DNA of 64,000 nt, taken from positions 71,700 through 135,699 of the forward strand of contig CAVWRJ010000011.1 in assembly GCA_963757335.1 (NCBI GenBank), written 5' to 3'. The translations under genes were made by a program, and so were the position numbers. The DNA is from an uncultured Acidobacteriota bacterium (GTDB taxonomy: Bacteria; Acidobacteriota; Thermoanaerobaculia; Multivoradales; UBA5704). This document shows, piece after piece, positions 121 to 43,420 of the stretch (within the stretch, counting starts at the first letter, position 1; every line of letters begins with the position of its first letter). Below the pieces are notes generated by a model that did not search any database, had not been told where the DNA came from, and worked only from the letters and a program-made list of their open reading frames with translations.

Positions 121-154
121 GGGGGTAGGTGTTCTTTCGGGTAATACGAGTGCG

Positions 155-12937: not shown

Positions 12938-15697
12938 GTGCATGATTGCCTACAACTCAGGAGGTCTTTGCCCAAGCCGATCTTCAGGGATATATACTTC
13001 TATCCTCATTCTTTGGCGTGTGGCGAGCTTCCGGTGACAGAGCCTCGTGAAACAGAGTCAGTAGGACCCCTCACTGGTCCGCCTCCCGGCGGAAGATGGT
13101 CCCCAGGGCGGCTCGTCGCGGATCGCTACGAGGTCCGGAAGTATCTCGGACGCGGCGGCTTTGCGACTGTCTACCGCGCCTATGACCGCCTCGTGAAGAT
13201 CGAGGTGGCCCTCAAAGTCGTCCACCCGGAGCGGGACCCGGAACGAGCACTCGTCCGGCTTGCCCGGGAAGTGGAGATCGCGCGGCAGAGCCTCGACCCT
13301 CATCTCGTTCGGGTCTTTGATCTCGGGAGAACAAGCGAGGACATCTTCCTCACGATGGAGTTACTCCAGGGCGGGTCACTTCGAGAACGACTCGCCCATG
13401 GGCCGCTTCCGGTTCCTGAGGCCCTCCGTATCGCGGAGGCCGTGCTCCAGGGCCTCGCCGCGCTCCACGCGAGAGGCGCAGTGCATAGGGACGTGACCCC
13501 GGGGAACATCCTATTCTCGGAGACGGGCGAGGTGAAGCTCGCTGACTTTGGGCTTGCGAGGTATCTCGCGCGCGAGGAAACCCAGCTCACCTCCCTCGGC
13601 GCCGTCCTCGGGACCGCCGGCTATCGCTCGCCGGAGCAGGCCCTCGGGCGAGACATTGACCCACGGAGCGACCTCTATGCCCTGGGGGTCGTGCTCTTTG
13701 AGATGCTCGCGGGCCGCCTGCCGCACGAGGCGACCTCCGAGTTCGGGCGGCGACTTTCAGTCCTCGAACGGGCTCCAGATGTACGGAGCTACCGGAAGGA
13801 CGTTCCTCCGTGGGCGGCGAAGATCGTGGCCCGCCTCCTTGAGGTCCGGCCCGCCGATCGCTACCGCACCGCCGAGGAGGTTCTCGGGGACCTAAGGCGA
13901 GGCAGGAGCCCGCGGCGCGTGCGCTTCCGGCGGCGTCTTTTCCGCTCGATCGCGGTCCTCCTCTTTTGCTTGCCACAGGTCGGAGTGCTCGTCACGCGAG
14001 CGCGCCATGCTGCTTTTTCTCATCTTGTCCCCGCTGGCGAGACGGGCGTGAAGGCCGTAAGCGTCTCCGGCGAGACGCTCTGGACGGTCCCCGGAGTAAA
14101 TCCGGAGATCGTGAACCGCGGAGCGCTCGCGCGGATCACGCCCGGCGGCCCCCGCCTCCTCGCGATCGTCCTTTCCCGGGCGGGCGACTGGTCGATGACG
14201 GCCGTTTCGACGCTCTCCTTCCTCGATCCGGACTCCGGCCGGGTCGTGAAGGAGGTAAAGCTTCCGAGCGGTGCGGAGTCCTTCCCGAACGACCCGCCAC
14301 GGTTTTTCGCTTCCTCGGTGAAGGCCGTCGATCTCTTCCACGATGGCGTGGACGAGGTGGTCGTAAATTGCAGCCATGTTCCGGAGGCGCCCTTCTATGC
14401 CGTCCTCTACGCGCCTCGCTACGACCTGGCCCGGATCGTCTTCTACTCCCGCGGCGGACAGGACTTCCAGGGAGCCACGGACCTCGACGGCGACGGCGTC
14501 AAAGAACTCCTCTTTGCGGGGATCAATAACGGGTGGAACTGGGTAAACATCGTCGCGGCGGTGCGGCTCGATCCGCGCTCCTTCACGGAGGGAGACCGGA
14601 TGGCGACTCCCGCCGCGCCGGACACGGTAGCCACGCCCGCGCAGGGGCGCGCGCTCCTCTGGTACGCCGTCGTTCCGCGCGGCCAACTTGAGGAATTCTC
14701 CCGGCTCAGCGTTGACGAGAAGCGGCGGGAGCTCACGGTCCACTACCTCTCGGGGAAGACCTGGGTCTTGGGGTTCGACGGCTTCCCTCCGGATGCCGCG
14801 CACCCGGACAATACCCTGCGCCAAGCCGACCGGCGGGCGGTCTACGATCATCTCTGGGAAGCGGAGCGTCTCCGGCGGGCCGGCATGCTCGACCTCGCGA
14901 TGACCGAAGCGGAAGCCGCGCTCGCATCGGCAAAGCGTGCCCGGGAGACGTGGCTCGGAGAGTACGCCGAGCGGCTCGAAGCAAAGATCCTCACAGCCCA
15001 AGGGAAGACCATAGAGGCCGAGCGCCGCTTTACCTCGCTCGTTCTCCGCGCCGAGGACGCTCCCGAGGTGGCCTATGACGCCGGTGTCGCCTTTCACCTC
15101 CAGGGCGACCTCACCCGGGCCGTCGCCTGGTACGAACGGGGCATCGGCCGCGAGTCCGCGATTGGCGCCGGGAAGAGCAAACACGAATTCCTGAAGGGCG
15201 AAGTCTTGGCACTCGTCGAGGAGAAGCGGTACGAGGAAGCGCTCGCGGCGGTGGCGCGTTTCGGGGCTACCTATCCGTCCGCCGAGGGCCGCATGTGGCT
15301 CTTCCGCGAGTATGTCCGCTGGCGAGCGGGCGAGCGGCCAGAGGCGGACCCTGCCGGAGTGCGGCAAAACTGGACGGACCTCGATCGGTATTGGGCGCTG
15401 GAGTTCGCCTTCGCCGCGGGCGCCAAACCGGAGCCCCTCTTGAAGCAAGTGGATCTCTTCATCGCCGAGCGGCCGGAGACGCAAGCGGAGGCGCTCTCGC
15501 TCCGGGCCGAACTTCTTGCCCGCCTGGGGCGCAGGACGGAGGCCGCAGGAACGGCGCAGTCTGCGTTGGAGCTGGTGCGGGTAGAAAAGCCCAGGAGTAT
15601 CATCGCGCACGGCCATGAAGAACTCCTCGGCGAGCGAGCTCGCCGCCTCCGAATCGAGGGAACAGCTATGACGCCGCGCGGTCATTCCGCCCCCTAA
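12938..15697 (+). CDS. Hanks-type serine/threonine protein kinase with C-terminal beta-propeller/FG-GAP-like and TPR-like regions
   Basis: LGRGGFATVYRA (Gly loop), ALKVVHPE (beta3 Lys), HRDVTPGNILF (catalytic loop, note T in place of Lys), KLADFGLAR (DFG), SPEQ (APE); DLDGDGVKELLFAGINNGW FG-GAP-like; C-terminal helical repeats. Alternative in-frame GTG start at 13034. Confidence 0.85.
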   Translation: MHDCLQLRRSLPKPIFRDIYFYPHSLACGELPVTEPRETESVGPLTGPPPGGRWSPGRLVADRYEVRKYLGRGGFATVYRAYDRLVKIEVALKVVHPERDPERALVRLAREVEIARQSLDPHLVRVFDLGRTSEDIFLTMELLQGGSLRERLAHGPLPVPEALRIAEAVLQGLAALHARGAVHRDVTPGNILFSETGEVKLADFGLARYLAREETQLTSLGAVLGTAGYRSPEQALGRDIDPRSDLYALGVVLFEMLAGRLPHEATSEFGRRLSVLERAPDVRSYRKDVPPWAAKIVARLLEVRPADRYRTAEEVLGDLRRGRSPRRVRFRRRLFRSIAVLLFCLPQVGVLVTRARHAAFSHLVPAGETGVKAVSVSGETLWTVPGVNPEIVNRGALARITPGGPRLLAIVLSRAGDWSMTAVSTLSFLDPDSGRVVKEVKLPSGAESFPNDPPRFFASSVKAVDLFHDGVDEVVVNCSHVPEAPFYAVLYAPRYDLARIVFYSRGGQDFQGATDLDGDGVKELLFAGINNGWNWVNIVAAVRLDPRSFTEGDRMATPAAPDTVATPAQGRALLWYAVVPRGQLEEFSRLSVDEKRRELTVHYLSGKTWVLGFDGFPPDAAHPDNTLRQADRRAVYDHLWEAERLRRAGMLDLAMTEAEAALASAKRARETWLGEYAERLEAKILTAQGKTIEAERRFTSLVLRAEDAPEVAYDAGVAFHLQGDLTRAVAWYERGIGRESAIGAGKSKHEFLKGEVLALVEEKRYEEALAAVARFGATYPSAEGRMWLFREYVRWRAGERPEADPAGVRQNWTDLDRYWALEFAFAAGAKPEPLLKQVDLFIAERPETQAEALSLRAELLARLGRRTEAAGTAQSALELVRVEKPRSIIAHGHEELLGERARRLRIEGTAMTPRGHSAP

Positions 15698-15706
15698 GGA
15701 GTCCCC

Positions 15707-16630
15707 ATGCTTCGTATTCTGATCTCTCACGGTTACGAGGAGCGGGTCTTCCCTCTTCCCGAGGGTGAAGCCTTCCTTGGGAGTGCGCCCGAAAACGATA
15801 TCGTCCTGCATGTCCGCGGCGTCTCCCGTAGCCACGCGCTTTTGCGGCGATGCCCTGAGGGAGTCGAGGTCATCGACCAGGGCTCCAAAAACAAGCTCTT
15901 TGTCGGCGCTGGTCAGGTGGAACGCGCTATCCTCACGACGGGGCTTCGGGTTCAGATCGGGACCGCTTGGCTGGAGGTCGAAGAGGTCTCCTCGTCCGAG
16001 CAAGCGCTTGCTCTCCTCGTTCAGACTTCCTCGGAAGAGACAATGCCGCGATCGCTTCGTACCGAGATGGTCGGGCCGAGGAAAGACTCGCGAGACCTTT
16101 CGCCTGCCGATGGCGCTTTGGCCCTCGCCTACCATATCGCCGAGAGAGGAGCCGGCATCCCAGGGCAGCGAAATGACCTCCTCTTGAGGATCAAGGAGGC
16201 TCTTGGAGCAGAGACTTTTGGAACCTTCGATCGGCGGCTACGCGGGGGGCTCCGCCTCTGGGAGAGCGAGGGGCAGTTTCTTCCGGAGGATGTTAGGGCC
16301 TTCGGAACGCTCGCCGCCGATATACGAGGGAGCCAAGTGGTTCTGAAGCGTGCAGAGCGCCTGCTCATCGCCGGAAGAGAATCATGGTTCCTTGGGGCAA
16401 AATTCGGAGAGGATTCTCTTGCCCATGAGGGGTGGCGGAAAGACCTCCTTCGCTTCCTCGCAAGTCAGCTCTTCAAGCCGGCGCAGAGCCTCGACGAACT
16501 CGATGCGGGGGAGGCGCAGCGCGTGCTCGCCTTAAACCGTGGGAACAAGTCGAAGACCGCAAAGCTTCTCGACCGGACTCGCGGTACGCTCGACAAGCTG
16601 CTGGCAGGCGCGAACCCGGCTAAACGCTGA
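15707..16630 (+). CDS. FHA-domain protein with C-terminal Fis-type helix-turn-helix
   Basis: N-terminal FHA pattern (LPEGEAFLGSAPENDIVLHVRGVSRSHALL...NGSKNKLFV); C-terminal AQRVLALNRGNKSKTAKLLDRTRGTLDKLL resembles HTH_8/Fis; 10 bp downstream of the kinase gene. Confidence 0.8.
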   Translation: MLRILISHGYEERVFPLPEGEAFLGSAPENDIVLHVRGVSRSHALLRRCPEGVEVIDQGSKNKLFVGAGQVERAILTTGLRVQIGTAWLEVEEVSSSEQALALLVQTSSEETMPRSLRTEMVGPRKDSRDLSPADGALALAYHIAERGAGIPGQRNDLLLRIKEALGAETFGTFDRRLRGGLRLWESEGQFLPEDVRAFGTLAADIRGSQVVLKRAERLLIAGRESWFLGAKFGEDSLAHEGWRKDLLRFLASQLFKPAQSLDELDAGEAQRVLALNRGNKSKTAKLLDRTRGTLDKLLAGANPAKR

Positions 16631-17795: not shown

Positions 17796-20700
17796 GAGCA
17801 AAGCGAATTCCTCCTTTGGTACTCATTCTTCTTATCGCCCAAGAGACTGGCGCCATGGCGCAAAAATTTGGTCACCTTCCTTTTGTGGACGCTATCGAGA
17901 GTGCTGCCATGAAGAACGGCAGCCGCGACCACTGCACACTCACCCCTCGCAAGCTGATGGCATACCTGCTCGCGCCCACTTGGTCGGAAGTAGCCAACAG
18001 TGACCGCACTTTAACCCCCTCGCCAATGGCACTGGGCAGAGGCGACAAAGATCTTCATTTCTTCATGGCGGGTCAAGATCAAATTGGCGCGCCCTACCAC
18101 CGCGCCTTTTGGCATCCCGGAATCGGCCTCTGGCAGCTGGATGATGGGGGGTTTGCGATGGGTCTCGGTGTGGAGAGATTCCACGCCGTGAACGCTGCGG
18201 ATAGCGCCGCCAAAATGATTGCGGATCTCTATTGCAACTGTACCGACCCAGACTCAGCACAGTGCGCCGCGATCATTTTTGGGCCGAGCACATGGGTCAG
18301 TTGTGGCAGCGATGGCAGTATCTGCTGGCAGACCTTCCAGGCTATCTATAACCCGAACGGCCCACCTCTGATCGCTGATGACTACTCCACTGATAGCCTG
18401 GGTGGCTCGGAGTACCATGTCTGCACCATCGCCGGGGCCCCAGAGAGATTTCACTGCCTTTATGTGGATACGACGCGGGTCGAGGGATATTCTCATTGGA
18501 CAACTTTCCCTGATCCGGGTGGACTATGGCCATTAGCTCAACCGTTCTATGTATATAACTATCCGCCGCTTGGCGCTGCGACATCTGAGATCCGATACTG
18601 GATGGCCGTGGACGGACCCATTGAAACCGGCCCCTTTCCCACGGACATCAGCGCAATGCGAACGTTAGGCATTAATTCGCGAGATGGTCTTATTTGGAAG
18701 CTACCTTCGGCGCCCAACGGCGACGGCCTCTGTGATCTAACTCGTCCCCATGGGGACGCATGTCTTGGCCAATATCGATCAAATGGAACGACGCCGATCG
18801 TGGTTGGCAGCGAAACGGATGAGAGTGCAGTCAAATTTCGTGCACTCATGAGCGATCCGAACGGGCAGTCAAGCAGATTAGAGATCGAACTCCGGCAGCT
18901 TAAGGAGAATAGCGGAGCCTTCAGCGATTCGCCAACGCAGACAAGCCCCATGGTCACCGCAGGTAACGTTGCCGAGGCGACGGCGAACGGCCTTATCAAA
19001 GGCTATTACCACTGGCAGGCAAGGACAGTAAACGCTACGGGGCAGAAGAGTCCATGGCAGTCGTTTGGTGGCAATCCTGACGGTGTAACGGATTTCACTG
19101 TCGGGCATGGCGGTACGCTTCAGGTCAGGGCAACCGTAGACGGCTCTCCTTATTCAGGCTTCGTTTCATATTCGGTATCAGGTCCCACATCCTTCGTCGG
19201 TACGAGCGCGGATATTTACCGCAATCTTCCTGAGGGCAACTACACGGTTCTTTATCTCTCCGGTGGCCCAGCCAATACCAATTACCACAATATTACTCCC
19301 GGCCCGAGTCAGTACGTCTCCGCAGGAAGTCCAATTTCGTGGACTCTTGCGCTCACGACAGATCAAGGGCAGTTCTGCTCGGCAAACTCCGGCGCCGACG
19401 CGCAATCAGCTTTATACACGACTTGTGGCGGCAGGCTATCCGTAATCCTTGCCGGCACCGGCAGCGGGCGCATACTGAGCAGTCCCGTCGGCATTGACTG
19501 CCCCGGAAGCTGCTCGACAAGCTTTCCGACAGCGTCGCAGGTGACCCTTTCTCCAAGTCCCTCACCGGGATCAACATTCAGCGGTTGGACGGGCGATTCG
19601 GACTGCTTCGATGGCGTGGTCACGATAAATGGCGATCGGACATGTACCGCGACATTCACGGCCACTGCTACCGCGTATCCGCTCTCCATTGCAACCTCCG
19701 GCTCGGGCACGGTAAGCAGCATCGACGGGGGCATCAACTGCGGCGCGACCTGCACTCACACCTACGTCTCTGACACTCCGGTAACGCTCACCGCATCAGC
19801 GGCTTCAGGCTGGTCATTTTCCAGCTGGTCAGGGAACTGCTCCGGAGGGCCGTCGATCCAGGTCACGATGACGAGTAGCCGCAACTGTACGGCGACCTTC
19901 GTGCAGACCGCAGGTACCACTCCCGAAACGACGACGGGGATGGCGCCGAATCCCGGCGCGACGAGCGCAACGCTGAATGGCACGGTGAATCCTCATGGGC
20001 TCGCTACCACTGCCTTCTTCGAGTACGGCCCCGACCCATTCCTTGGCTATGCGACTCCCGGAGTGGGCTTTGGCAACGGCAACTCCCCCCTGTCGTTTAG
20101 CCAACCCGTCACGGGACTCGCATGCGCGACGACCTACCGTTTCCGCACCGTGGGAGTAAGCGCCGCTGGCGAATATCGTTCGAGCAACAACACCTTTCAG
20201 ACGGCGGCCTGTCCCCCTGCCCCCTGTAACGTCCTGACGCTCACCCAAAACGGCGACGGCGCGGTGCCGGTAGCTACGCCAGCGCAGTCTTCGGGCTGTC
20301 CTTTCAGCCAGTACCATGCGGGCGAGCACATCACCCTCACGGCCTCCGCCGGAGACGGCAACATCGTGACCGGCTGGGGCGGGACGGATAACAACGCGAG
20401 CACGGCGACCGTGAACACGATGACCATGCCTGCCTCTAACTGGACGGCGTTCGCCTCTTATGGGCATATCTGCTACCACCTGAGCCTTGGATATACCGGA
20501 CAGGGCGCGGCACCCGTCGCGACGAATCCCGTGGCATCGTGTCCCGCTGACTACTTCCCCTGGGGCTACGAAGTGCGTGTGGAGTCAAGTCCCGCAACAG
20601 GATGGAGGATCGGGGGCTGGAGCGGAACGAGCAACGATGCGACCATGAGTCCCTTCAATTTTATCGTGATGCCGATCGGGAATACCACAGCGCTTGTGCA

Positions 20701-22726: not shown

Positions 22727-22822
22727 CTGCTCGACGAGGTGACGCCGGTCGGCGGGCGCGTCGCTTGATTCGGTCAAATACGTGGTGGATGTAAACCTCC
22801 GAACGACGATGTGGAGATATTC

Positions 22823-23491
22823 ATGCCCAAACTTCCTGAAGTCGAAGGCCACTGGCACTCTTTGATCGAGGGCTTCGCGACCTCCTCCCTCGACTTCTAT
22901 ACCCTCGTCCAGGCGAATCTCGCCCGCCGCGAGATCCCCGATCTCCTCATCTATTCAGTGAAGTGGAAAGAGAGCGGCGTGGCCTCCGGGAAGCGCATCT
23001 ACCTCCGCATAAGCCGCGAGCACTTGAACTTCGACATCTGCGCCGCGCCCTTCGGCACCGGATTCTTCTTCTCCTGGTGGCTCGCGCGAATTCGGCGGAT
23101 CTTCCTTGACTTCCTCTGCCTGCTCCTTGGCCTTCTCTGCGGAGGCTTCATCGGATACGTCATCGTAAATGAAAGCCCGAATAGCACGGGACATGGCGCA
23201 GCCTTCGGCTCCCTCATCTTCTTCGGCACGCTCTTCGGCATTGGCCTCATCGTGCGCCATGCGAACCTCGGGCTCGAACCTACGGTCATCTCCATGCCCG
23301 TCACGGGTTTCCTCTACCGGTTCGTCTTCCGGCCGACGACGTACTTCAATGAGGATACCGCCCTCATGTTCCGGGAAGCGGTCCACAAGGCGGTGGTCGA
23401 GGCGATCGATACGGTGACCTCGGCGCAGGGGGTTCGCGGCCTCTCCGAGGAGGCGCGGAGGGTCACCTTCACTCCGGGCAAAGGGACGTGA
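22823..23491 (+). CDS. hypothetical membrane protein (2-3 TM)
   Basis: Hydrophobic segments FFFSWWLARIRRIFLDFLCLLLGLLCGGFIGYVIV and AAFGSLIFFGTLFGIGLIV; immediately upstream of the HerA-like fusion gene; ORF-track frame opens at 22811. Confidence 0.5.
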   Translation: MPKLPEVEGHWHSLIEGFATSSLDFYTLVQANLARREIPDLLIYSVKWKESGVASGKRIYLRISREHLNFDICAAPFGTGFFFSWWLARIRRIFLDFLCLLLGLLCGGFIGYVIVNESPNSTGHGAAFGSLIFFGTLFGIGLIVRHANLGLEPTVISMPVTGFLYRFVFRPTTYFNEDTALMFREAVHKAVVEAIDTVTSAQGVRGLSEEARRVTFTPGKGT

Positions 23492-23508: not shown

Positions 23509-26496
23509 ATGGGTCAACCTACCCTCCCCAAGCGCCTGACTGAGCAGTTCTACGCCTTCGAACTCCGGGGCCGGGGCTACGAGGAGTTCCCCTATCCGGT
23601 AGAACTCGAACCGCCCTTCCGGCCCTTCCCCGGATACTCGCTTCCCCGCGTCGAGGACGACGGCCACCGGCCGACCATCCTCAGCCGTCTCTTCAGGCCT
23701 TCCCGCCGGAGGGTTGAAGCGCCCGAGACCCAAGAGCCAGAGCCCACGCCCTTCGAGGTCGAGGAGCCGATCACCGAGTGCGTGGTCTCCCTCCCCGAGG
23801 ACAAGGTGGTCTCCCGGGAACTCGCAGAGCGCTTCCTGCTTTCGGTCGCGGGCGCGGAGCTGCCGCTCGCCTTCGAGATCCTGGGACTCCCCGAGCGCCT
23901 TGAAGCACGGATCGCTTCCCGGGCGCCGGACACCTCCCTTCTCGCGAACGAACTCCGCGCCTTCTTCCCCGAGGTCTCGATCGGAGAAGAAGACGGCGGG
24001 CTCCGGAGCGCGTGGACAAGGGGTAAGGGCGAGACCGTCTGCCTCCACTTCGGCCTGGCCCGCGAGTTCATGCTGCCGCTCGTCTCCTTCCGCTCCCTCG
24101 ATCCCGATCCCCTTCTCCCGCTCCTTGGGGCACTCTCCGAGCTCGATCCCGGGGAGGCGGGCCTCGTCCAGGTCCTCTTCGAGCGGGTCAGGGAGCCGTG
24201 GGCCGAGAGCGTCATGCGGGCGGTCGTGACCGGGAAGGGCGAGCCCTTCTTCGCCGACTTCCCGGAACTCACAAAGCTCGCCAAGGAGAAGATTGCGAGC
24301 CCCCTCTATGCCGTCTGCCTGCGACTTGCGGCGAAGAGCAGAACCCTCGCCGGGGCCTGGCGCATCCTTCGCGATCTCGCGGGGAGCTTGACCCACTTCG
24401 GGAACCCCGTGGGAAACGAACTTCTCCCCTTGGCCTCCGAGGAGGGCGAGGAAGCCGCTACGGAGATCTTCCGCCGCACGAGCCGCCGCCCGGGGATGCT
24501 CCTCGGGCTCGACGAACTCACGGGGCTCGTCCATCTCCCGAGCGCCTCGGTAAAGATCCCGAAGCTCGTCCGCGAGGTGCGGCGGACAAAAGCAGCGCCG
24601 ATGCTCGCGGGAGGCATCCTCCTCGGGGAGAACTTGCATCACGGAAGGACCGTCCCTGTCCGACTGCCCGAGGAGCTTCGCCTCCGGCACCTGCATGTCG
24701 TCGGGGGCTCCGGGACCGGCAAGTCCACCCTCCTCCTCGACCTTATCTCGCAGGACATCGAAGCCGGCCGGGGCGTCGCCGTCCTCGATCCGCATGGCGA
24801 TCTTGTGGACGAGGTTCTCGGCCGCATCCCCGAACAGCGACTCGCGGACGTGATCCTCTTCGACCCGGCGGATACAGAGCACCCCCTCGCCTGGAACATC
24901 CTCGAAGCCCACTCCGAACTCGAACGCACCCTCCTCGCCTCGGATCTCGTGGGGCTCTTCCGCCGCTTCTCGACCTCCTGGGGCGATCAGATGACCTCGG
25001 TCCTCGGGAATGCCGTCCTCGCCCTCCTCGACTGCCCTGGTTCCACCCTCCTTGACCTCCGCGAGTTCCTCGTAGACCGCGCGTCCCGGGAGAAGCTCCT
25101 CAAGGCCGTAGAGGACCCGTACCTGCTCTCATACTTCCGGCAGGAGTTCTCTCTTGCAGCCGGGAAGAGCGTGGGGGCGATCCTCACGAGGCTCGACGGC
25201 TTCCTCCGGAGCCGGACGGTACGCGCGATCGTGGGCGCGCGCGAAAGCCGGCTCGACCTTCGGGCAGTCATGGACCGGGGGCAGATCTTCCTCGCGCGGC
25301 TCTCAGAGGGGGCGATCGGGGAGGAGAACGCCGCACTCCTCGGGAGCCTCCTCGTCTCGAAGTTCCACCAGGTAGCCATGAGCCGCCAAGAGATCCGGCG
25401 GGAGGAGCGGCGGCCCTTCTTCCTCTACGCCGACGAGTGCCAGGAGGTCGCGACCCCCTCCATGGCTCTCCTCCTTTCGGGTGGCCGGAAGTATGGCCTC
25501 GGCCTCACCCTCGCGCACCAGGATCTCCGCCAGCTCGATACCAAAGCTCCCGAAGTCGCCTCGGCGCTTATGGCGAACGCGGGGACAGGCGTTGTCTTCC
25601 GGGTCGGTGAGCGGGACGCGAAGGCGCTCGCCGAGGGCCTCTCCTACTTCGGCGCCGCCGATCTCCTGGGGCTGCGGGTCGGTGAGGCCGTGGCCCGGAT
25701 CGAAAACGCACGGGGCGATTGCAACCTCCGAACGCGGCTTCTGTCTCCTGTTCCCTCAGACATCGCCCTCCATCGCCGGGAGGCGGTCACTCTGCACTCG
25801 CGGGAGCGCTACGCCACCCGGGTCGAGGCGGTGGAAGCGCGGAGGAGAGAGGAGATACCGCCTCGCCCGGAGACAAAGGACGTGCCGGAAGTCACCGCGC
25901 CTGCCCGGGAGCCGGAAGAGCGCTCCACGACGCCGCTGCCGCCGAAGCGGGCAGCGCGGTCCCCAGTTCCCCCTCCACCCCTCGGTCGGGGCGGGCCGGA
26001 GCATCAGTACCTTCAGGAACTCGTGAAGCGCTGGGGAGAGTCCCATGGCTACCGCGCCGTGATCGAAGAAGAGATCCCGGACGGCAAGGGCAGCGTCGAT
26101 GTGTCTCTTCGGAGCGACGATTTTTCGATCGCGTGCGAGATCTCCGTCACCTCGACCGTGGCACAGGAGGTTGGGAACGCAAAGAAGTGCCTCGAAGCCG
26201 GTTTTGATGAGGTCGCGATCCTCGCCCTCGCGCGTCCGCGCCTCGCAAAAATCGAGGCGGCTCTCAAGGCAAAGCTCACAGCTGCCGACCTCGCCCGCGT
26301 GCATGTGGTCTCCTCGGAAGAACTCTTCTCCCTGCTCTCCATGAGGCCCGTGACTACGGAGACCGTGGTCGGTGGATACAAGGTGAAAGTGCGCAGGAAG
26401 ACCGTTGAGACGAGTGAAGAGGCCATCCGCTACCGCGCCCTCACCGAGGTCATCGCAAAGAGCGTGCGCCGCCTGGAGGGCAAGGAAAAGCCATAG
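23509..26496 (+). CDS. HerA/FtsK-superfamily (TraD-like) ATPase fused to ~370-aa N-terminal unknown domain and C-terminal PD-(D/E)xK-like tail
   Basis: HLHVVGGSGTGKSTLL (Walker A), LDPHGDL, FFLYADECQ (Walker B), GLGLTLAHQDLRQL and GVVFRVGERDAKAL match the ATPase at 4844-6124; C-terminal GSVDVSL...IACEISVTS...NAKK is reminiscent of restriction-endonuclease-fold residues. Confidence 0.7.
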   Translation: MGQPTLPKRLTEQFYAFELRGRGYEEFPYPVELEPPFRPFPGYSLPRVEDDGHRPTILSRLFRPSRRRVEAPETQEPEPTPFEVEEPITECVVSLPEDKVVSRELAERFLLSVAGAELPLAFEILGLPERLEARIASRAPDTSLLANELRAFFPEVSIGEEDGGLRSAWTRGKGETVCLHFGLAREFMLPLVSFRSLDPDPLLPLLGALSELDPGEAGLVQVLFERVREPWAESVMRAVVTGKGEPFFADFPELTKLAKEKIASPLYAVCLRLAAKSRTLAGAWRILRDLAGSLTHFGNPVGNELLPLASEEGEEAATEIFRRTSRRPGMLLGLDELTGLVHLPSASVKIPKLVREVRRTKAAPMLAGGILLGENLHHGRTVPVRLPEELRLRHLHVVGGSGTGKSTLLLDLISQDIEAGRGVAVLDPHGDLVDEVLGRIPEQRLADVILFDPADTEHPLAWNILEAHSELERTLLASDLVGLFRRFSTSWGDQMTSVLGNAVLALLDCPGSTLLDLREFLVDRASREKLLKAVEDPYLLSYFRQEFSLAAGKSVGAILTRLDGFLRSRTVRAIVGARESRLDLRAVMDRGQIFLARLSEGAIGEENAALLGSLLVSKFHQVAMSRQEIRREERRPFFLYADECQEVATPSMALLLSGGRKYGLGLTLAHQDLRQLDTKAPEVASALMANAGTGVVFRVGERDAKALAEGLSYFGAADLLGLRVGEAVARIENARGDCNLRTRLLSPVPSDIALHRREAVTLHSRERYATRVEAVEARRREEIPPRPETKDVPEVTAPAREPEERSTTPLPPKRAARSPVPPPPLGRGGPEHQYLQELVKRWGESHGYRAVIEEEIPDGKGSVDVSLRSDDFSIACEISVTSTVAQEVGNAKKCLEAGFDEVAILALARPRLAKIEAALKAKLTAADLARVHVVSSEELFSLLSMRPVTTETVVGGYKVKVRRKTVETSEEAIRYRALTEVIAKSVRRLEGKEKP

Positions 26497-26600: not shown

Positions 26601-28355
26601 CCTATGGACCGCGCCAAAGACTCGGAGGCGAAGCCCGTCGGCATCTGGATTCGGGTTTCGACCGAAGACCAGGCCAGGGGCGAGAGTCCCAAGTACCACG
26701 AGATGCGCGCAGAGAGCTACGCCGAGTCCCGGAGATGGAAGGTGATTGAGGTCTATCACCTCGAAGGCGTGTCGGGGAAGTCGGTTATGGAGCACCCCGA
26801 GACGAAGCGGATGATGGCCGACGTGCGCAAGGAGCGCATCGCGGGCCTCATCTTTTCGAAGCTCGCCCGGCTCGCGCGGAACACGAAGGAACTCCTGGAG
26901 TTCGCCGAGTACTTCCGCGAGCACGGGGCGGATCTCGTCTCCCTTCAGGAGTCGATTGATACCTCAACCCCTCACGGTCGCCTCTTCTACACCATGATCG
27001 CTGCGATGGCCGAGTGGGAGCGCGAGGAGATCGCCTCCCGGGTGGCGGCATCGATCCCCATCCGGGCAAAGCTCGGGAAGCCGATCGGCGCCCCGCCCCT
27101 CGGGTACCGCTGGCACGAGAAGCGGATGGAGATCAATCCAGACGAGGCCCCGATCCGGCGTCTCATCTACGAACTCTTCAAGGAGCACGGACGCCTCAAA
27201 ACCGTCGCCGAACTCCTGACTGCCGCCGGCTATCGCGGCCGTAAGGGCAAGCCCTTCCGGGACATGACCGTGGAGCAGATCCTCACCGACCCCTCCGCCA
27301 AGGGCCTCCGCCGCGCGAACTATACGAAGCTCGTCAAAGGGAAGAGAGTCCTGAAGCCAGAATCGGAATGGGTCTTCGTGCCGTGCCCCTCGATCGTCTC
27401 CGAGGAACTCTGGGAGGAGTGCAACGCGCTCCTTCTGCGGCGGAAGGCGTCCCACAAGCCCGTCGCGAAGCGGGCGGTCTATGTCTTCGCGGGATTCGTA
27501 TACTGCGCCTGCGGGGAGAAGATGTACGTACGCTCGAACACCCCGAAGTACGTCTGCATGGCCTGCCGGACGAAGATCCCAATCGTAGACCTCGACCAGA
27601 TCTTCCAGAACCAACTAGAGGAGTGCACTCTCAGCCCGGATGCCATCGCGGCCTACCTGACCCAAGGGAACGAGGTCAGGACCCAGAAGGAGGAACTCTT
27701 GGCCACACTTTTTCGCGAGCGGGATCGACTCATCAAGGAAGCCGACAAGCTCTACCGTCTCTACCAGGAAGATGGCCTCACGGTCGACGGGTTCCGCAAC
27801 CGCCACCGACCCCTCGAAGCTCGCCTCGCGGGGTTGGGCACCGAGATCCCCCGCCTCCAGGGCGAGATCGACTTCCTCAAAGTCCGCACGGTCATGGAAG
27901 GCGAGATCGTCGGCCGCACCCGGGGCCTCGCCCTTGAGTGGCTCCGGATGGACCTCCCAGAGAAGCGGGCCGTCGTCGAGAGCCTCGTCGAGCGGATCAC
28001 GATCGAGAAGGACACCGTGACGATCGACCTCATGGCCCTCCCGCCTCTCTCGGAGATCATGGCAAAAGGGCCACCCAGGGAGAGAGTTGCTTGGCGCTGT
28101 CGACCCGCAGGAGCAGGTGATAGTGGTTGGACAGGAAGGCGAAGGCAAAATTTTCATCTCAAAGAGACGTTGAGCCCGGCCGAGAGTACCGACGACGATC
28201 TCGTTAAGCGCCGGGCTGGGGCAAAGAAGAAGGCGGCTTTGGACGGTGCGGGTCGAGACTTCGACCAGGGTCTGGGATTCGGGGATGAAGCGGAGAGGTC
28301 GGCTCATGGAAGGGAGAGACGTAAAAAGTCCTCCCATCTTGCAAACTTCCTTTAA
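26601..28355 (+). CDS. large serine recombinase (resolvase/invertase N-terminal domain, recombinase domain, zinc ribbon)
   Basis: VGIWIRVSTEDQ catalytic-Ser motif, IAGLIFSKLARLARN, zinc ribbon CACGEKMY...CMAC, coiled-coil region. ORF frame opens at 26496 (overlapping the upstream stop); likely start MDRAKD at 26601. C-terminal end uncertain because the tail enters the repeat-rich region. Confidence 0.8.
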   Translation, partial: PMDRAKDSEAKPVGIWIRVSTEDQARGESPKYHEMRAESYAESRRWKVIEVYHLEGVSGKSVMEHPETKRMMADVRKERIAGLIFSKLARLARNTKELLEFAEYFREHGADLVSLQESIDTSTPHGRLFYTMIAAMAEWEREEIASRVAASIPIRAKLGKPIGAPPLGYRWHEKRMEINPDEAPIRRLIYELFKEHGRLKTVAELLTAAGYRGRKGKPFRDMTVEQILTDPSAKGLRRANYTKLVKGKRVLKPESEWVFVPCPSIVSEELWEECNALLLRRKASHKPVAKRAVYVFAGFVYCACGEKMYVRSNTPKYVCMACRTKIPIVDLDQIFQNQLEECTLSPDAIAAYLTQGNEVRTQKEELLATLFRERDRLIKEADKLYRLYQEDGLTVDGFRNRHRPLEARLAGLGTEIPRLQGEIDFLKVRTVMEGEIVGRTRGLALEWLRMDLPEKRAVVESLVERITIEKDTVTIDLMALPPLSEIMAKGPPRERVAWRCRPAGAGDSGWTGRRRQNFHLKETLSPAESTDDDLVKRRAGAKKKAALDGAGRDFDQGLGFGDEAERSAHGRERRKKSSHLANFL

Positions 28356-28459
28356 CTTACTTGGAATGAAGCAGATAGACTCTGAGCCGACGCAAATGAA
28401 ACTGGACGGCTGGCGAATGAAAAACGGCTGGCACTTGGAAGGGCCGGGGAGGTGGACAA

Positions 28460-29240
28460 TGCTCTGAGTGCCGCTACCTCGGCTCTCGGCACCGAGACTC
28501 GAAGACAAAGACCGGGACACTGCCTTCAACCGCCGCCATCTCGGGTCGCGGTACCGCGACTCGAAGACAGAGTCCCCGGACAATGCTTCCGGGGACCGCT
28601 CTCTCGGCTCTCGGTACCGAAACTTGACGACAGAGACTTGGACCAAGCCTTGGCTGCCGCTATTGCGGGTCTCGGGACCGGGACTCGATGACGGAGCGCC
28701 GGGACTTGGGTTCAGGGTCCCGGGACTTCGGTCCTCCGCCAGGGAGAAAGACCGTCGTCCCGCGACTCTGGGTCGTGGTCCCCGGACTCGACGTCGCAAT
28801 CCCGGGACGAAGAATCGCCGTCCCCCGGCCGAGGGTCGCGGTCCCGGGATGGCGGTCGGGGTCGCGGGACTCGGAGTCTCCGGCCCGCTACGTTGAGTCG
28901 CGGTACCGGGACTTGAGAGCGCAGCCCCGGGACGGCGGTCTTAAACCCTGGAGGCCAACCGTGGTGACGGGACGGCGACTCGTCGTCCCCGGACTACGAC
29001 TCTCCGTCCCGAGACTTCGAGTCTCGGTCCCGGGACTCGACATCGACGGTGCGGCACCGGAGACGGAGTCCAGGCAGCGAAGACGTCGTCTCCTTACCTG
29101 GCTATCGAGTCCGGGGAACGCGGAACAGAGTCCCGGGACATTGCCACTAAGTTTTGGCAGCGGTAGTAAAACCGGGGGACATCGGAACGGAGTTTGCGGA
29201 CGGCGACTCTCGGTGCGGGGACAACAAGCGTTTCGGCGAG
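28460..29240. repeat. array of about 12 degenerate tandem repeats with about 62-bp period, each containing short palindromes (e.g. TCGCGGTACCGCGA, TCTCGGCACCGAGA, GGTCCCGGGACTCG)
   Basis: Direct reading: recurring CTCGG(T/C)ACCG(A/G)GACT(C/T)GA(A/C)GACAGAG..CCGGGACA units; fills the convergent intergenic region between the recombinase and the SDR gene; overlapping ORFs in all frames. Confidence 0.75.
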
Positions 29241-29248
29241 TCGATACC

Positions 29249-29941
29249 TCAAAACCCCGGCACCGTCACGCTCTTGCCATTGTCCGCCACCCCCAGGCCA
29301 AGGAGGAACGGCGCGGCGCGGAGCGCCCAGCGGTCGGGGCCGGGGTAGGTCTGGGCGGCGCGGCCGAAGCAGCTCTCGAGCATGGCGGTGTTGATGAGGC
29401 CGGGGTTGACCGCGACCGCCGCCAGGCCGAGCGGCAGCTCCTGGGCGAGGGATCGGGTCAGCCCCTCGATCGCCCACTTGGCGGCGCAGTAGGGGGCGAC
29501 CTCGGGGGCCGCCGAACGCCCCCAGGCGGAGCTGACGTTGACCACCACCCCGCTGCCGCGCGCCACCATCAGGGGGAGGAAGGCCCGCGACACGTGGAAG
29601 GTGCCCGCCACGCAGCTGTCGAGCACCGCCTGAAACTCCGCCACCGGCACCTCCCAGAGCGGGGCGTTGGCGTTGATCTGCCCGGCGTTGTTGATCACGA
29701 GGTCGGGCGGCAGGTGGACGGCGAGGAGCCGGACCGCCCAGGCGTGGACGGCCGCGGGGTCGGCGACATCGACCGCGGCGACATCGTGCGGCTCGCCCAA
29801 GAGCGCCGCAAGCTCGGCGACCGCTTCGGGCGAGCGGCCGCAGGCGAGGACGGTGTTCCCCAGCTCCGCCAGGCGAAGGGCGAGCGAGCGCCCGAGACCG
29901 CGGGTCGCCCCGGTGAGAACGACGATCTTGCCCTGGCTCAA
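29249..29941 (-). CDS. SDR family oxidoreductase (short-chain dehydrogenase/reductase)
   Basis: TGATRGLGRS Rossmann motif, NNAG, YCAAK catalytic Tyr/Lys. Confidence 0.8.
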   Translation of the reverse strand: MSQGKIVVLTGATRGLGRSLALRLAELGNTVLACGRSPEAVAELAALLGEPHDVAAVDVADPAAVHAWAVRLLAVHLPPDLVINNAGQINANAPLWEVPVAEFQAVLDSCVAGTFHVSRAFLPLMVARGSGVVVNVSSAWGRSAAPEVAPYCAAKWAIEGLTRSLAQELPLGLAAVAVNPGLINTAMLESCFGRAAQTYPGPDRWALRAAPFLLGLGVADNGKSVTVPGF

Positions 29942-29960
29942 CGGCGGAGTCCCATGGCGG

Positions 29961-31801
29961 TCATTCTGCGCCGAGCGGTGCCAGGAGCGGCAGCTCCTCG
30001 TCAGTCGGCTGGAAAAGGACGGCGCCGACGGTGCCGGGCCCGGCGTGGGTCCCCACCACCGGCCCCATCTCGGTGACCAGCAGCTCGCGGATGTCGAAGG
30101 CCCCGGCGAGGAGCTCGCGGAGGCGGTCGGCCCAGACCGGCGCCTTGGCGTGGGCGACCCCGGCGAGCACCGGCCGGTCCGCGGCGACCCGCTCCCGGAA
30201 GAGCTCCAGGAGGCGCGGGTGCGCCGCCCGGCCGCCCCGCACCCGGTCGACCGCTACCACCTCCCCTCCCACGACGCCGAGGATCGGTTTGATCCCCAGG
30301 AGGTTGCCGAACACCGCCCGCGCCCGGCCGATGCGGCCGCCGCGCGCCAGGTACTCCAGGGTGTCGACGACGAAGAGGACGTGCAGCCGAGGGCGGATGG
30401 TGGCGAGCCGGTCGGCGATCTCCGCCGCCGGCACCCCGCGCCGGGCGAGCCGGGCGGCGAAGAGGGCGAGAAGGCCGAGACCGAGGCTCACCGAACCGCT
30501 GTCGACCACCCGCGGCGAGGTATGCCCCACCTCGTGCCCCGCGCACCCCTCGTGCTCAGAGCCGGCACCCAGGCCGTCCGCGGCGGCCCGGGCATGGACG
30601 ACGGTCTGCGACAGCTTCTCCGAGAGGTGAACCGAGATCAGCTCGCCGCGGCCGGCGAGCCCCTGGTAGGCGGCGGCGAGCTCCTCTGGCGACGGGGGCC
30701 GGGTGCTCGGCGGCAGGGGGCCGTGCTCCAGGCGTTGGTAGAACTCGCGGGGGGTGAGGTCGATCCCGTCCCGGAGGTCCTCCTCGCCGAACAGGACGTG
30801 GATGGGCACCACCTCGATGCCGTGGGCGCGGGCCAGCTCGGCCGGCAGGTCGGCGGCCGAATCGGTGACGACGCCGACCGGCGTCCGCGGCTCCTCGAAG
30901 ACGACGAGCCCACGGTCGTGGAAAGCCAGGAGGTCGCGGAGGATCTCGCCGTCGGTGCCGGGGAGGGTGTCCAGGAGGTGGCCGACGCTCGGCCCGTCGG
31001 CGAGGACTCCCAGAAGTCGCCGCTCGGAGAGGGAGAACGGGGTGGCGAAGTAGCCGGGACCGGTCGACAGGTGGACCCGGACCGCCGGCCCCGGGGCGCC
31101 GTGGACGACGTCCTCGATGGCGAGGATGAGGAGCGCGGAGAGGTCGCTCTCGATCTCTCTCCCCATCTCCTTAGTCCCCTGGCTCACCTCGGGGCCGGCG
31201 GGGAGGAGATGGAACGGACCGGCCTCCTTCCTGGCGAGGCGGAGGAAGGCCTTCTCGCCGCGCACCCCCGCCGCCGTCGTCACCCGCGCGGCGACCACCT
31301 CGCCCGCCGCGAGGGCGACCTCCCCCCCTCCAGCACGACGGACCCGGAGACCTGGGCCCGGTTCAAGGCCCGCAGCAGCTCGAGCAGGGGGAAGAGGGCC
31401 AGGTCGCCGACCAGGGTCTCCAGGCGGGCGTCGGGCTCGACCCCGATCTCGCTCCCCAGGAGGACCAGCCGCACCCGCCGCACGAGATCGTCCCCGGCGA
31501 GCCCGCGGGCGACGAGGAAGAGGACCTCCGCTGGCAGCTCGCGAGCCTCCTCCTCGCTCCGGCCGAGGAGGAGGAGGGTGCGCGCCGACCCGGGGCCGGC
31601 GGCGAAACCCGCCCAGTCGGTGATCCCGGGGAGGTCGGCGGCCGCCACCACGACGGCGGGGCCGAGGCTGGCGGCGAAGCGCCGCCCCTCGGCGGCGTCG
31701 ACCGCCGGCACCACCTCGTAGCCGAAGCCGGACAGGCCGCGGGCGAGCTCCCGCCGGCGGGAGCTGTCCGGGTCGACCACCAGCAGGGCGGGACGGGCCA
31801 T
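29961..31801 (-). CDS. receiver (REC)-DUF4388-DegV fusion protein, interrupted by an apparent frameshift at a G7 run (about 31326-31332)
   Basis: 31801-31280 frame: MARPALLVVDPD...AADLPG (CheY-like receiver) then LVGDLALFPLLELLRALNRAQVSGSVVLEGG (DUF4388 start). It continues in another frame as EVALAAGEVVAARVTTAAGVRGEKAFLRLARKEAGPFHLLP (DUF4388 core). C-terminal DegV (VGVVTDSAADLP...GIEVVPIHV...). Adding one G to the C7/G7 homopolymer restores a single frame. Confidence 0.55.
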
Positions 31802-41470: not shown

Positions 41471-41550
41471 CGATGTCGACGATGTCGGACTCTGTCGGAC
41501 GATGTCGGGAGGTGTCGAACGGTGTCGGTTTATGTCGATTATGTCGGTCA
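41471..41550 (+). promoter_or_regulatory. eight direct repeats of NNTGTCG(G/A)NN at 9-10 bp (helical) spacing, candidate transcription-factor/enhancer binding array
   Basis: cgATGTCGac gATGTCGgac tcTGTCGgac gaTGTCGgga ggTGTCGaac ggTGTCGgtt taTGTCGatt aTGTCGgtca, followed by inverted repeat CTGCCGG-N13-CCGGCAG. Confidence 0.6.
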
Positions 41551-41699: not shown

Positions 41700-42929
41700 A
41701 TGAAGATTCGTTTCGCTGTGTTGGTATTGACCGTCGCGGCGAGCTCGCTCTGGCTCGCCGGGAGCGGTGGTTCGCAGCCGGTGCTCGCCGCGACCGCCGG
41801 GAGGGTCGCCGCGCCGGCCGCCTGCCAGTTTCCGCTCGGCTGGGTGGGTACGCCGGCGGAGACCGCCTGGCGGCTCTTCGTCGCGACGAACTGCCCGGCT
41901 GGCGGCACTCAGCTCGTCTGGGAGACCTGGATCGAGCAGGACGCCCTCTATCCCGCGAGCGGATCGGCAGCGCAGAAGGGCGCCAAGGCCAAGCGCCTCC
42001 ACGGGAGCCCGCTGTTCAAGGCTTTGATGGCCCGGAAGAACGGCATGACGGCCGAGCTCTCCCCGGCCACGGAGTGCAACAAGATGGGGAGCCCGCCGTC
42101 AAACGTCGTCCCCAACGCCACGGTCTGCGAGGAGGTGCGGCTCAACCCCTCGGCCCGGACGTTCGTCCAGACCAAGGGCTACCAGGTGCGCTCCGGCCAG
42201 ATCAAGGCCGCCCAGTCCGGCACCAACATCCAGTTCCCGACCGCCGGGATCGAGGTCAAGGTGGACTGGATTCCCGCCACCGACTTCGCGACGCCTTTCA
42301 CCTGCGCCAACCCGCCCCAGGGCGTGCACGTCGAGACGATCGACGGCGCCTGCTACGCCATGGCCGGCATGCACCTGATCTCGAAGATCGCGCCGAACTG
42401 GATCTGGGCGACCTTCGAGCCCCAGAGCATGGAAACCAACCCCAATCGCTGCATCACGTTCGGAGCGTGCAACGACCCCTGGGGCTCGGTCCCGCCGACG
42501 AGCAGCGGCGGCGCCGGCGGCTTCACTCAGCTGACCCCCGCTCTCCAGGCCCTCATGAAGAGCGCCAACCTCGCGCCGGAATTCCTCAACTACCGCCTGG
42601 ACGGCGTCCAGACCCAGTTCGGCACCGCCGCCAACCCGACCCTCCTCGGCAACTCGATCATCGAGGGCGAGAACGTCGGCATGACGACCGGCACGGCGTC
42701 CTGCATCACCTGCCACTCGGTCTCCACCGTCAAGACCGACGGCACGGACGGGATCACCATTCTGGGGAGCTTGCCGACGCCGCCGGTCGGGCCGGAGTAC
42801 GTCGTCCCCCAGGGCTGGATCGCGCGGGACTTCGTCTGGTCGCTGGCGCTCGCCTGCCCCGGTGGGATCCAGAACTGCTCGTCGTCCGTAGCGGCGGCGA
42901 AACCGGCGAAGAAAACGAAGACGAAGTAA
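41700..42929 (+). CDS. secreted protein with a single CxxCH heme-binding motif (putative c-type cytochrome domain), Lys-rich C-terminus
   Basis: GGAAGGGG RBS; signal peptide MKIRFAVLVLTVAASSLWLAGSGG; ASCITCHSV (CxxCH); many conserved Cys. Confidence 0.6.
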   Translation: MKIRFAVLVLTVAASSLWLAGSGGSQPVLAATAGRVAAPAACQFPLGWVGTPAETAWRLFVATNCPAGGTQLVWETWIEQDALYPASGSAAQKGAKAKRLHGSPLFKALMARKNGMTAELSPATECNKMGSPPSNVVPNATVCEEVRLNPSARTFVQTKGYQVRSGQIKAAQSGTNIQFPTAGIEVKVDWIPATDFATPFTCANPPQGVHVETIDGACYAMAGMHLISKIAPNWIWATFEPQSMETNPNRCITFGACNDPWGSVPPTSSGGAGGFTQLTPALQALMKSANLAPEFLNYRLDGVQTQFGTAANPTLLGNSIIEGENVGMTTGTASCITCHSVSTVKTDGTDGITILGSLPTPPVGPEYVVPQGWIARDFVWSLALACPGGIQNCSSSVAAAKPAKKTKTK

Positions 42930-42939
42930 CGATGGACGT

Positions 42940-43420
42940 CCGGGCGGGATCGGCGGTGCCGGTCCCGCTGCCACGGCGCGAGACACGAACGGCTCCAGCG
43001 AGACACTAGCGACCCTCCACGAGACACGAAGCGTCGACGGCGAGACACGATGTGTTGGCGGTGGGACGCGAAGTTCCGACGGTGGGACACGAAGCGTCGG
43101 CGGTGGGACACGAAGCTTCGGCGGTGGGACACGCGCGTCCTGCCGCGAGACACAGCCGGCCGGCAGCGAGACACAGCCGGCCGGCAGCGAGACACAGCCG
43201 GCCGGCAGCGAGACACAGCCGGCCGGCACGCCGTGGCCCGCGGCAGGCGCGTGGTGACTCGCAGCAGGCGCGTAGTGACTCGCGGCAGGCACGTAGTGAC
43301 TCGCGGCAGGCGCGTCGTGACTCGCGGCAGGCGCGTCGTGGCCCGCGGCAGGCGCGTGGTGGCCCGCGGCAGGCATCTGGTGTCTCGGTCCAACCGAGGG
43401 GTCTTACCTGCCGCGCTCGC
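42940..43420. repeat. about 23 tandem 21-bp repeats in three sub-families: GCGAGACACAGCCGGCCGGCA x4 (perfect), GGTGGGACACGAAGCGTCGGC-like x4, CGCGGCAGGCGCGTNGTGACT-like x7
   Basis: Direct reading; occupies the convergent intergenic region between the CxxCH-protein gene and etfA; stop-free in several frames, producing artefactual heptad-repeat ORFs. Confidence 0.8.

Follow-up and report, generated by a model that had tools for sequence, protein, structure and literature searches.

A probable decaying minisatellite of phase-coherent 62-bp units in an acidobacterial SDR-Y1 spacer, and a class of intergenic arrays with 21 x n-bp periods

The 64,000-nucleotide stretch analysed here (the window), taken from contig CAVWRJ010000011.1 of an uncultured Acidobacteriota bacterium (assembly GCA_963757335.1), carries a degenerate array of 62-bp tandem repeats, hereafter array A, next to the gene for a large serine recombinase. 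Comparison with relatives places array A in host DNA, in the spacer between a short-chain dehydrogenase/reductase (SDR) gene and the remnant of a gene for a HUH Y1 transposase-like protein. We consider it probable that array A is a decaying, lineage-specific minisatellite without demonstrated function. As a bacterial minisatellite it would be of an ordinary kind, with an unusual three-level and phase-coherent form, and among the related sequences surveyed it appears as one member of a class that is defined by period and not by sequence. The clade-wide 21-bp rule that marks this class is left unexplained by such an origin.

Architecture and non-coding nature of array A

With its ends set by homology to the relative L004, array A comprises 799 bp (28445-29243), or about 12.9 copies of 62.04 bp. 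An earlier note, made from the sequence alone, had proposed about 12 units of 62 bp in a degenerate array of ~0.8 kb at this place; the array proves to be real and far beyond chance by Tandem Repeats Finder (TRF), autocorrelation and the lattice described below, and the unit count agrees with ours, the basic period however being ~20.7 bp. Each 62-bp unit is made of three sub-units of ~20.7 bp (21+21+20), which amounts to ~38.6 lattice positions of 20.68 bp over the whole array. The 21-mer sub-unit consensus derived from an iterated position weight matrix (PWM) is cTtcGAGTCcCGGgACCgcGA, and the sub-units contain dyads centred on CCCGGG or GGTACC, with cores of the form GAGTC-CCGGG-GACTC or TCGCGG-TA-CCGCGA. 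Searches with the PWM recovered 26 distinct 21-nt unit sites, of which 18 are on the minus and 8 on the plus strand. The 18 minus-strand units share one 20.68-bp lattice (62.04/3) with a resultant length (R) of 0.99, the 99.9% value of the null being 0.69; this phase coherence extends over 745 bp and persists through stretches in which the units themselves are unrecognisable. Units are mostly arranged head-to-tail and do not alternate. Many of those on the minus strand start with C[T/G/A]TC, the starts seen being CTTC, CGTC, CATC and TGTC, with GTAG in one unit, and the tag is not invariant.

Autocorrelation of the region 28460-29240 yields peaks at lags of 21, 41/42, 62/63, 83, 103/104 and 124/125 (z = 5-10 versus shuffles), and identity at on-lattice offsets is 0.36-0.46 up to ~20 periods, as against 0.28 off the lattice. 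No long lag is prominent, which argues that no large block was duplicated recently. TRF recovers only the best-kept part of the array, namely 62 bp x 3.7 at 28470-28696 (72% matches) and 21 bp x 3.2 at 28976-29041. Repeat finding returned a 67-nt unit in five copies and a 29-nt core, GCyAyCTCGGGTCGCGGTACCGCGACTCG, in eight copies, the spacings of which are 62, 63, 61, 103, 125, 67 and 57 bp. The core that had been quoted for the array, TCTCGGTACCGAGACTCGAAGAC, was found in five places at <=3 mismatches, once in inverted orientation, with none expected. In an alignment of the 26 units the mean column identity is ~71%; the cores are 72-83% identical to each other and the segments between them 58-71%, compared with 54 +/- 5% in shuffles. 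Perfect palindromes 8 bp or longer are about twofold enriched (9 observed vs 4.6 +/- 2.0 in shuffles), which bears out the proposed palindromic character of the array as an enrichment, though not as a palindrome in each unit, some units being without one. The search for terminal inverted repeats or a target-site duplication around array A gave only an unconvincing 16-nt, 88%-complementary pair (28446-28461 with 29278-29293), the second arm of which falls within the coding sequence of the SDR gene.

Array A is non-coding. Its GC content by codon phase is flat (0.67/0.65/0.65), unlike that of the SDR gene (0.74/0.52/0.94) and the recombinase gene (0.63/0.42/0.85), stops are present in all six frames, and none of the open reading frames (ORFs) overlapping it has a Pfam match. 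The unit spacings of 61-63 bp are likewise not multiples of 3. The earlier note had named membership in a conserved, expressed protein-coding gene as the outcome that would overturn its reading, and no sign of such a gene was found. The positions of the array, its parts, its neighbours and the comparable arrays are collected in Table 1.

Table 1. Positions of array A, its internal features and neighbouring genes, and of other intergenic arrays (window coordinates unless a relative is named)
Feature	Coordinates	Strand	Description and evidence
Array A	28445-29243		Period 62 / 21
Best-preserved 62-bp higher-order units of array A	28470-28696	+	3.7 copies; 29-nt core followed by a 32-34-nt segment homologous between units; TRF, repeat families
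Longest perfect palindrome of array A	28545-28560		GTCGCGGTACCGCGAC
Eight contiguous head-to-tail ~21-bp units of array A	28752-28918	-	Type GAGTCCCGGGACC; PWM matches abut
Three contiguous 21-bp units of array A	28980-29042	-	PWM and TRF 21-bp row; includes an inverted copy of the left-hand core type, 29013-29035
226-aa ORF of the element module	22811-23491	+	Pfam, NCBIfam and PADLOC scans of the module; same gene order in L001 and L003
995-aa TrwB/T4CP/HerA-like ATPase (PADLOC mad8-like)	23509-26496	+	Pfam, NCBIfam, PADLOC; same order in L001 and L003
Large serine recombinase gene	26604-28355	+	583 aa as called; Pfam Resolvase + Recombinase + Zn_ribbon_recom
Right end of the element (attR junction)	28059-28082	+	...ATGGCAAAAGGGCCACCCA, cut, then G and Y1 antisense; comparison of window, L001 and L003, with the unoccupied site in L004
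N-terminal remnant of the HUH Y1 transposase-like gene	28083-28307	-	~76-80 aa, MSRPLRF...FLSNHYHLLLRVDSAKQLS; translations, tblastn
5' region of the Y1 gene, probable promoter/leader	28308-28444	-	Outside array A; conserved with L004, alignment blocks from 28444 to 28383 on, 80-100% identity
SDR oxidoreductase gene (core genome)	29249-29941	-	Pfam adh_short, 144 bits; orthologues 78-94% identical; stop codon 5 nt from array A
Array B	42978-43374		Period 21 / 42 / 63; made of three adjoining sub-arrays of 21 bp, each with a different unit; in the convergent gap after ETF-alpha; TRF
Array D	59953-60016		21 bp x 3.0, TRF; 86% identity over 35 nt to an L006 array
L004 array	19163-19552		Period 42 / 21
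L006 array	58-242		Period 43
L006 array	540-764		Period 62 / 22
L006 array	15118-15582		Five sub-arrays of 21 / 42 / 63
L028 array	3430-3595		Period 20-21 / 41
L029 array	7106-7245		Period 21 / 42

Location of array A in host DNA

The setting of array A is best seen by comparison with L004, a 596-kb JGI contig in which the SDR orthologue (94% amino acid identity) is followed by 145 bp and then by an intact Y1 gene of 309 aa; the product of the latter matches Pfam Y1_Tnp with 31 bits and NCBIfam REP_Tyr_transpos with 45 bits, under the 80-bit cutoff of that family. In a global alignment the window matches L004 from 29420 to 29244 at 95% nucleotide identity and from 28444 to 28083 at 91-99%, and between these conserved flanks there are 799 bp in the window vs 22 bp in L004, which makes array A an indel in the SDR-Y1 spacer. 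It extends from 5 nt past the SDR stop codon to 137 bp before the Y1 start codon, with both genes on the same strand, and conserved host sequence stands between it and the junction of the recombinase element. Given that the units of array A have diverged far more from each other (71% column identity) than the flanks have from those of L004 (5-9%), the array would be older than that split, and we infer that either L004 has lost it or it arrived in the window genome by recombination at a rearrangement-prone junction. The sequence downstream of the SDR gene does appear to be such a junction, a breakpoint of synteny, the neighbour being different in all five relatives: the Y1 gene in L004, AlkZ in L005, a glutaredoxin in L006, a small Cys-rich protein in L018 and a peptidase-like gene in L021.

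The recombinase is the last gene of a three-gene module, comprising also the 226-aa ORF and the ATPase, that likewise terminates related elements in L001 (6201-11489) and L003 (6211-11489). The window, L001 and L003 cease to be homologous after ...ATGGCAAAAGGGCCACCCA, at ~28078 of the window. Past this point the window and L003 enter the antisense of the N-terminal part of the Y1 transposase-like gene, which is cut just 3' of the HUH codons in both, while L001 has the 3' end of serA instead. With the attachment (att) site of the host, attB, taken from the Y1 gene as in L004 and attP deduced, the predicted point of recombination falls between ...CAACTCTC and GGACTTCATGGGC. The Y1 remnant left by the insertion additionally has a 1-bp deletion at ~28149/28150, and the intact L004 Y1 protein aligns with it in tblastn at 92% over aa 1-53 and 85% over aa 55-80. 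As called, the recombinase ORF runs to 28355 because its last ~90 codons read into host DNA, antisense to the Y1 remnant, and its native part ends near 28078. Homologues of the recombinase are typically ~505-515 aa long with a range of 494-583 aa, a spread that would be expected if the att crossover sits in the 3' end of the gene.

The serine-recombinase element has thus inserted into the Y1 gene ~370 bp from array A, and independently of it. No array of the array A kind is present in the related elements of L001 and L003, and in L003, where the element occupies the homologous Y1 gene, no array lies upstream of that gene. The flanks of the L004 Y1 orthologue similarly contain neither units of array A nor convincing terminal inverted repeats. 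These observations correct the annotation in two respects: the element ends at ~28078 and targets a Y1 transposase gene just after the HUH motif, a position that it also occupies in a second genome (L003), and array A is host DNA and not an att site. The earlier note had regarded array A as filling the gap between the recombinase and the SDR gene, and had suggested that it may be an att site, a recombination hotspot or an element-end scar. The array does lie in this gap, which it shares with the Y1 remnant and its 5' region; the att or scar proposal is not supported, and the hotspot can be retained only in the loose sense of a rearrangement-prone locus, not as the site at which the recombinase acts.

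As for the other end of the element, the element-side 20-mer is found once in the window, which contains neither the C-terminal half of Y1 nor the AlkZ neighbour; the left end is accordingly placed beyond position 1, and at least 28 kb of the element lie within the window. The left-hand genes, which include Replic_Relax, a second TrwB-like protein, an ArdC-like and a LexA-like protein, fit an element that extends to the left. Its cargo in the window comprises a TonB-dependent receptor, a Ser/Thr kinase, an FHA protein and a 1644-aa BNR/BACON protein. GC content is ~0.50-0.67 over 1-29000 and ~0.66-0.75 over 29000-60000, with the shift near array A and the SDR gene, consistent with foreign DNA at the left.

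Intergenic arrays with 21 x n-bp periods

The periods of non-coding arrays were surveyed in the window and in L004, L006, L028 and L029, which together provide ~200 kb of related Thermoanaerobaculia-like DNA. Throughout this material the strong non-coding arrays invariably have a period of 20-22, 41-43 or 62-63 bp (Table 1), with unit sequences that are mostly unrelated between arrays. The other strong arrays in the survey are coding only, with periods of 333 and 126 bp; one of them, 333 bp x 5.7 with 94% matches at 46733-48634, lies within a 1604-aa surface protein with Ig-like, TSP3 and PPC domains (46744-51558, minus strand). In control loci from other phyla array periods vary between 9 and 99 bp. 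The 21 x n rule has a weaker non-coding exception in nine TGTCGG words at 10-bp spacing (41471-41548; TRF period 10/20, scores 60-62). These words sit in a divergent promoter-like region upstream of the gene for a 409-aa secreted protein (41700-42929) and resemble the phased direct-repeat sites of regulators.

Units of the class usually hold a palindrome of 6-10 bp, such as GGTACC, CCCGGG, GCCGGCCGGC, GGGAGCTCCC, TTCCGGAA, AAGCTT or GTCGAC. The middle sub-array of array B (43145-43228; GCGAGACACAGCCGGCCGGCA) consists of four copies with 100% identity, which points to a recent amplification. A 21-bp unit type with the form GGAAAG..CTTTCC / GTGGAAAGTCTTCCGGAACC recurs at different loci in L004 (19371-19552), L006 (15118-15582) and L028 (3430-3640), and this type is truly a dispersed family of tandem repeats across three related genomes. 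The position downstream of the electron transfer flavoprotein gene ETF-alpha is occupied by array B in the window and by an unrelated 21/42-bp unit in L029; there is no array at this position in L028. Several arrays of the class are found at junctions of core and accessory DNA. The L029 array is followed at 7305-7598 by the C-terminal fragment of an IntI/XerD-like tyrosine recombinase. In L006 a run of 31 C and then G-rich repeats occupy 15630-15744, at the end of the contig right after the 21-bp arrays, and may be an assembly artefact or a simple repeat.

The search for further copies of the array A sequence itself covered JGI metagenomes and GTDB representative genomes, both scanned with strict patterns, as well as viral contigs, plasmids, phages, the window and ~130 kb of related loci. 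Neither the window nor the related loci yielded another copy of the unit, blastn against the latter giving only pattern-selected matches, and blastn of array A against plasmids and phages gave no match. A two-box pattern of the array had 0 matches in viral contigs and 10 in GTDB representative genomes, all of them single or unrelated and in other phyla, with those inspected being coding repeats or an unrelated 21-bp repeat. A single-box pattern had two matches in JGI metagenomes (L025 28-50 and L026 491-513), both within genes for transposases of the RAYT type (REP-associated tyrosine transposases, REP denoting repetitive extragenic palindromic sequences), where the reverse complement encodes HVFESRFRD. 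One unit of array A reads VFESRYRD in one frame; because the similarity stops at 23 nt and adjacent units are in other frames, we judge this match to be a coincidence, a frequent coding word happening to resemble the palindromic core of the array. The L026 gene is flanked by REP-like palindromes of the type GGGTCTG(A/T)CCCC (216-245 / 866-920). In a betaproteobacterial metagenome-assembled genome (L014), a 21 bp x 5.6 array, CCGTCATTGCGAGTCTCGGTT, stands at 2278-2395 beside a repeat of the 'cgtcattgcgagcgaagcg' type; it surfaced solely through a match to the search pattern.

Within the DNA searched, the sequence of array A therefore does not appear to form a dispersed family, and the dispersed repeat family postulated in the earlier note stands in another form, as a class of intergenic arrays with a 21-bp period. 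The 11-mer held to be common to array A and the array at 43 kb, GRGACWCGAAG, is enriched in both, occurring at <=1 mismatch five times in array A and six times in array B, with seven occurrences elsewhere and 7.7 expected in the whole window, but it is short, and there is no significant BLAST similarity between the two arrays. A literature search on such arrays in Acidobacteria or Thermoanaerobaculia, or on 21-bp intergenic repeats, found nothing relevant other than PMC3733652. Arrays of this kind have a practical consequence in that they break short-read assemblies and yield spurious ORF calls, for example an 81-aa "gene" over the L004 array. Should the 21 x n rule hold genome-wide it would call for an explanation, for example a constraint on phasing, a dedicated activity, or shared ancestry combined with rapid turnover.

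Origin of array A, rival explanations and known systems

As a tandem, head-to-tail series of non-coding units within the ~10-100 bp range, array A agrees with a minisatellite in its layout. We envisage that a palindrome-bearing seed of ~21 bp was multiplied by slipped-strand mispairing or unequal recombination, and that a 62-bp triple would then have been amplified to ~13 repeats, with the period inherited in register. Subsequent decay would have been mainly by substitution. Such an array would take no part in the reaction of the recombinase, would probably lack a sequence-specific function, and might at most serve as a structured spacer between the SDR and Y1 genes. Several observations sit uneasily with this origin. 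Slippage alone gives no account of the 21 x n period shared by unrelated arrays, and a spacing of 20.68 bp corresponds nearly to two turns of the helix, which recalls arrays of protein-binding sites. Furthermore, when decay of the lattice was simulated under neutrality with 29% substitutions and a varying indel:substitution ratio, R >= 0.985 was reached in 33% of runs at a ratio of 0.02, 6% at 0.05 and 1.5% at 0.1; on this model the retained phase hints at a spacing constraint, which is suggestive but not decisive. Relatives show only presence (799 bp) or absence (22 bp) of the array, with no allele of another copy number, the L027 contig breaking 20 nt after the SDR gene. Finally, the predicted folding of array A is far stronger than that of shuffles on both strands (z = -7.4 and -8.3), albeit palindromic and inverted units would give strong folding anyway.

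The geometry of the array raises the alternative of a phased protein-binding lattice, in which the dyad cores are operator-like sites of a dimeric DNA-binding protein. With a spacing of two turns all sites face the same side of the double helix, so that ~25-38 dimers could assemble cooperatively as a nucleoprotein filament, and this could act as an insulator, a nucleoid anchor or a silencer of the adjacent transposase and of incoming DNA. The period of 2 x 10.34 bp with its coherent phase, held even where units can no longer be recognised and rarely kept in neutral simulations at indel:substitution ratios >= 0.05, would suit such a lattice, as would the 21 x n period throughout the class. The state of the dyads points the same way: in the 26-unit alignment the pairing of two overlapping dyads amounts to 78% and 60% of cells, no better than in column shuffles, and double (compensatory) changes are not in excess, a pattern of consensus without compensation that suits recognition of half-sites better than selection for hairpins, for which these data supply no evidence. 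However, the units of the class are unrelated, so that one specific protein cannot account for all arrays, and protein-family scans found no DNA-binding, partition or replication gene linked to array A. Its absence from the close relative L004 indicates that it is not essential at the locus, its units are just ~71% alike, and the phase coherence fits neutrality if indels are rare. Weighing these points, we regard a binding lattice as unlikely, although it is the main rival. Somewhat more doubtful still is that array A is the product of an undescribed, clade-specific process or constraint with a 21-bp ruler, which could be a chromatin-like protein lattice selecting two-turn phasing or an enzyme that builds arrays in 21-bp steps at insertion sites. 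A role at the RNA level, with array A as the 3' untranslated region of the SDR mRNA and hairpins such as GAGUC-CCGG-GACUC stabilising the transcript or stopping read-through into Y1, would agree with the position and orientation of the array just past the SDR stop codon, the strong predicted folds on both strands and the enrichment of palindromes. We hold it to be improbable in view of the missing compensatory changes, the lack of the array in L004, and the fixed 21-nt period across unrelated arrays, for which it offers no reason. Moreover, Rfam gave nothing on 27500-30000 at E <= 10, or on the whole window at gathering threshold, beyond sub-threshold miRNA/lncRNA noise (none better than E = 0.1), no tRNA was detected in the sequence, and scans for promoter and terminator consensus sequences matched nothing.

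The neighbouring Y1 gene invites a comparison with REP clusters and bacterial interspersed mosaic elements (BIMEs), whereby the units would be hairpin substrates that were cut and rejoined by the HUH enzyme of a RAYT-like gene and accumulated beside it. The Y1 gene that starts 137 bp beyond array A indeed has the REP-associated tyrosine transposase as its best NCBIfam match, the units of the array are palindromic with one inverted, and the C[T/G/A]TC starts recall REPs with a CGTC tag (PMC3733652). Yet the intact L004 orthologue is unflanked by units and those in the window are on one side only, the score of 45 bits does not reach the family cutoff of 80, the unit is seen nowhere else in the 64 kb or in the ~130 kb of relatives, the units are mostly head-to-tail, and the other arrays of the class are not beside Y1 genes. 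Published reports also count against this origin, in that CGTC REPs are without an associated transposase and acidobacterial RAYT-like genes have flanking terminal inverted repeats (PMC3733652); it strikes us as slightly less credible than an RNA element. An att site, a cluster of pseudo-att sites or a scar of the serine-recombinase element is suggested by the nearby recombinase gene and the rearrangement-prone locus. It is nevertheless very improbable, as the junction at ~28078 is within the Y1 gene and the array begins ~370 bp further on, behind conserved host sequence, the L001 and L003 elements are without an array, and nothing in array A matches the attB-side or element-side sequence at <=3 mismatches. 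A site of the clt/TRS type for the TrwB/FtsK-like ATPase was also considered on account of GACCCGGA-like words, and was dropped because array A does not belong to the element and has no counterpart in L001 or L003. The recurrence of a partly palindromic 29-nt core every 61-63 bp could be taken for a degenerate CRISPR array (29-nt repeat and ~33-nt spacer, in sum 62 bp), or the array for the remains of a repeat-protein gene. To these we attach the least credence: the "spacers" are homologous to each other (58-71%) and the repeats just 72-83% alike, Pfam and PADLOC scans of the larger ORFs of the window detected no Cas family, and the array has no coding signal that would betray a former gene.

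A decaying minisatellite, then, is the reading of array A that we prefer, and it can be set against better-known repeat systems. Intergenic minisatellites and variable-number tandem repeats (VNTRs), for instance the mycobacterial interspersed repetitive units (MIRUs), consist of head-to-tail units of tens of bp between genes. Array A resembles them in its degenerate head-to-tail units, its presence or absence between close relatives and its presumed origin by slippage or unequal recombination. Plasmid centromeres and iterons provide another parallel, as in sopC of the F plasmid with 12 units of 43 bp and a palindrome per unit, parC of pSK41 with 20-bp repeats, and iterons of 19-22 bp. With about a dozen tandem palindromic units and a sub-unit spacing of about two helical turns, array A has a comparable geometry suited to cooperative binding, and it displays the helix-phased direct repeats that characterise these arrays (20.68 bp, R = 0.99). 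In contrast to them it is chromosomal and outside a mobile element, its copies are far more degenerate, and the genome has several unrelated arrays of the same period; protein-family scans found no ParA, ParB, ParR or Rep family among its neighbours. The att site of a large serine recombinase is a single imperfect dyad of ~40-50 bp at the junction of an element, and array A is like it in neighbourhood only, the junction here being at ~28078 in the Y1 gene. With REP/BIME clusters it shares short extragenic palindromes that are situated downstream of a gene and beside a Y1 (HUH) transposase-like gene and that could form RNA or single-stranded DNA hairpins (PMC3733652). It departs from those clusters in that no dispersed copies were found, its units are mostly in direct orientation on a strict 20.68-bp lattice, there is no conserved GTAG tag, and the Y1 gene of L004 is unflanked. 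From the MIRUs, lastly, array A is distinguished by its three levels of organisation (dyad core, ~21-bp sub-unit and 62-bp unit), by having neither small ORFs nor translational coupling, and by its membership of a set of arrays across the clade that have the 21 x n period, but not their sequence, in common.

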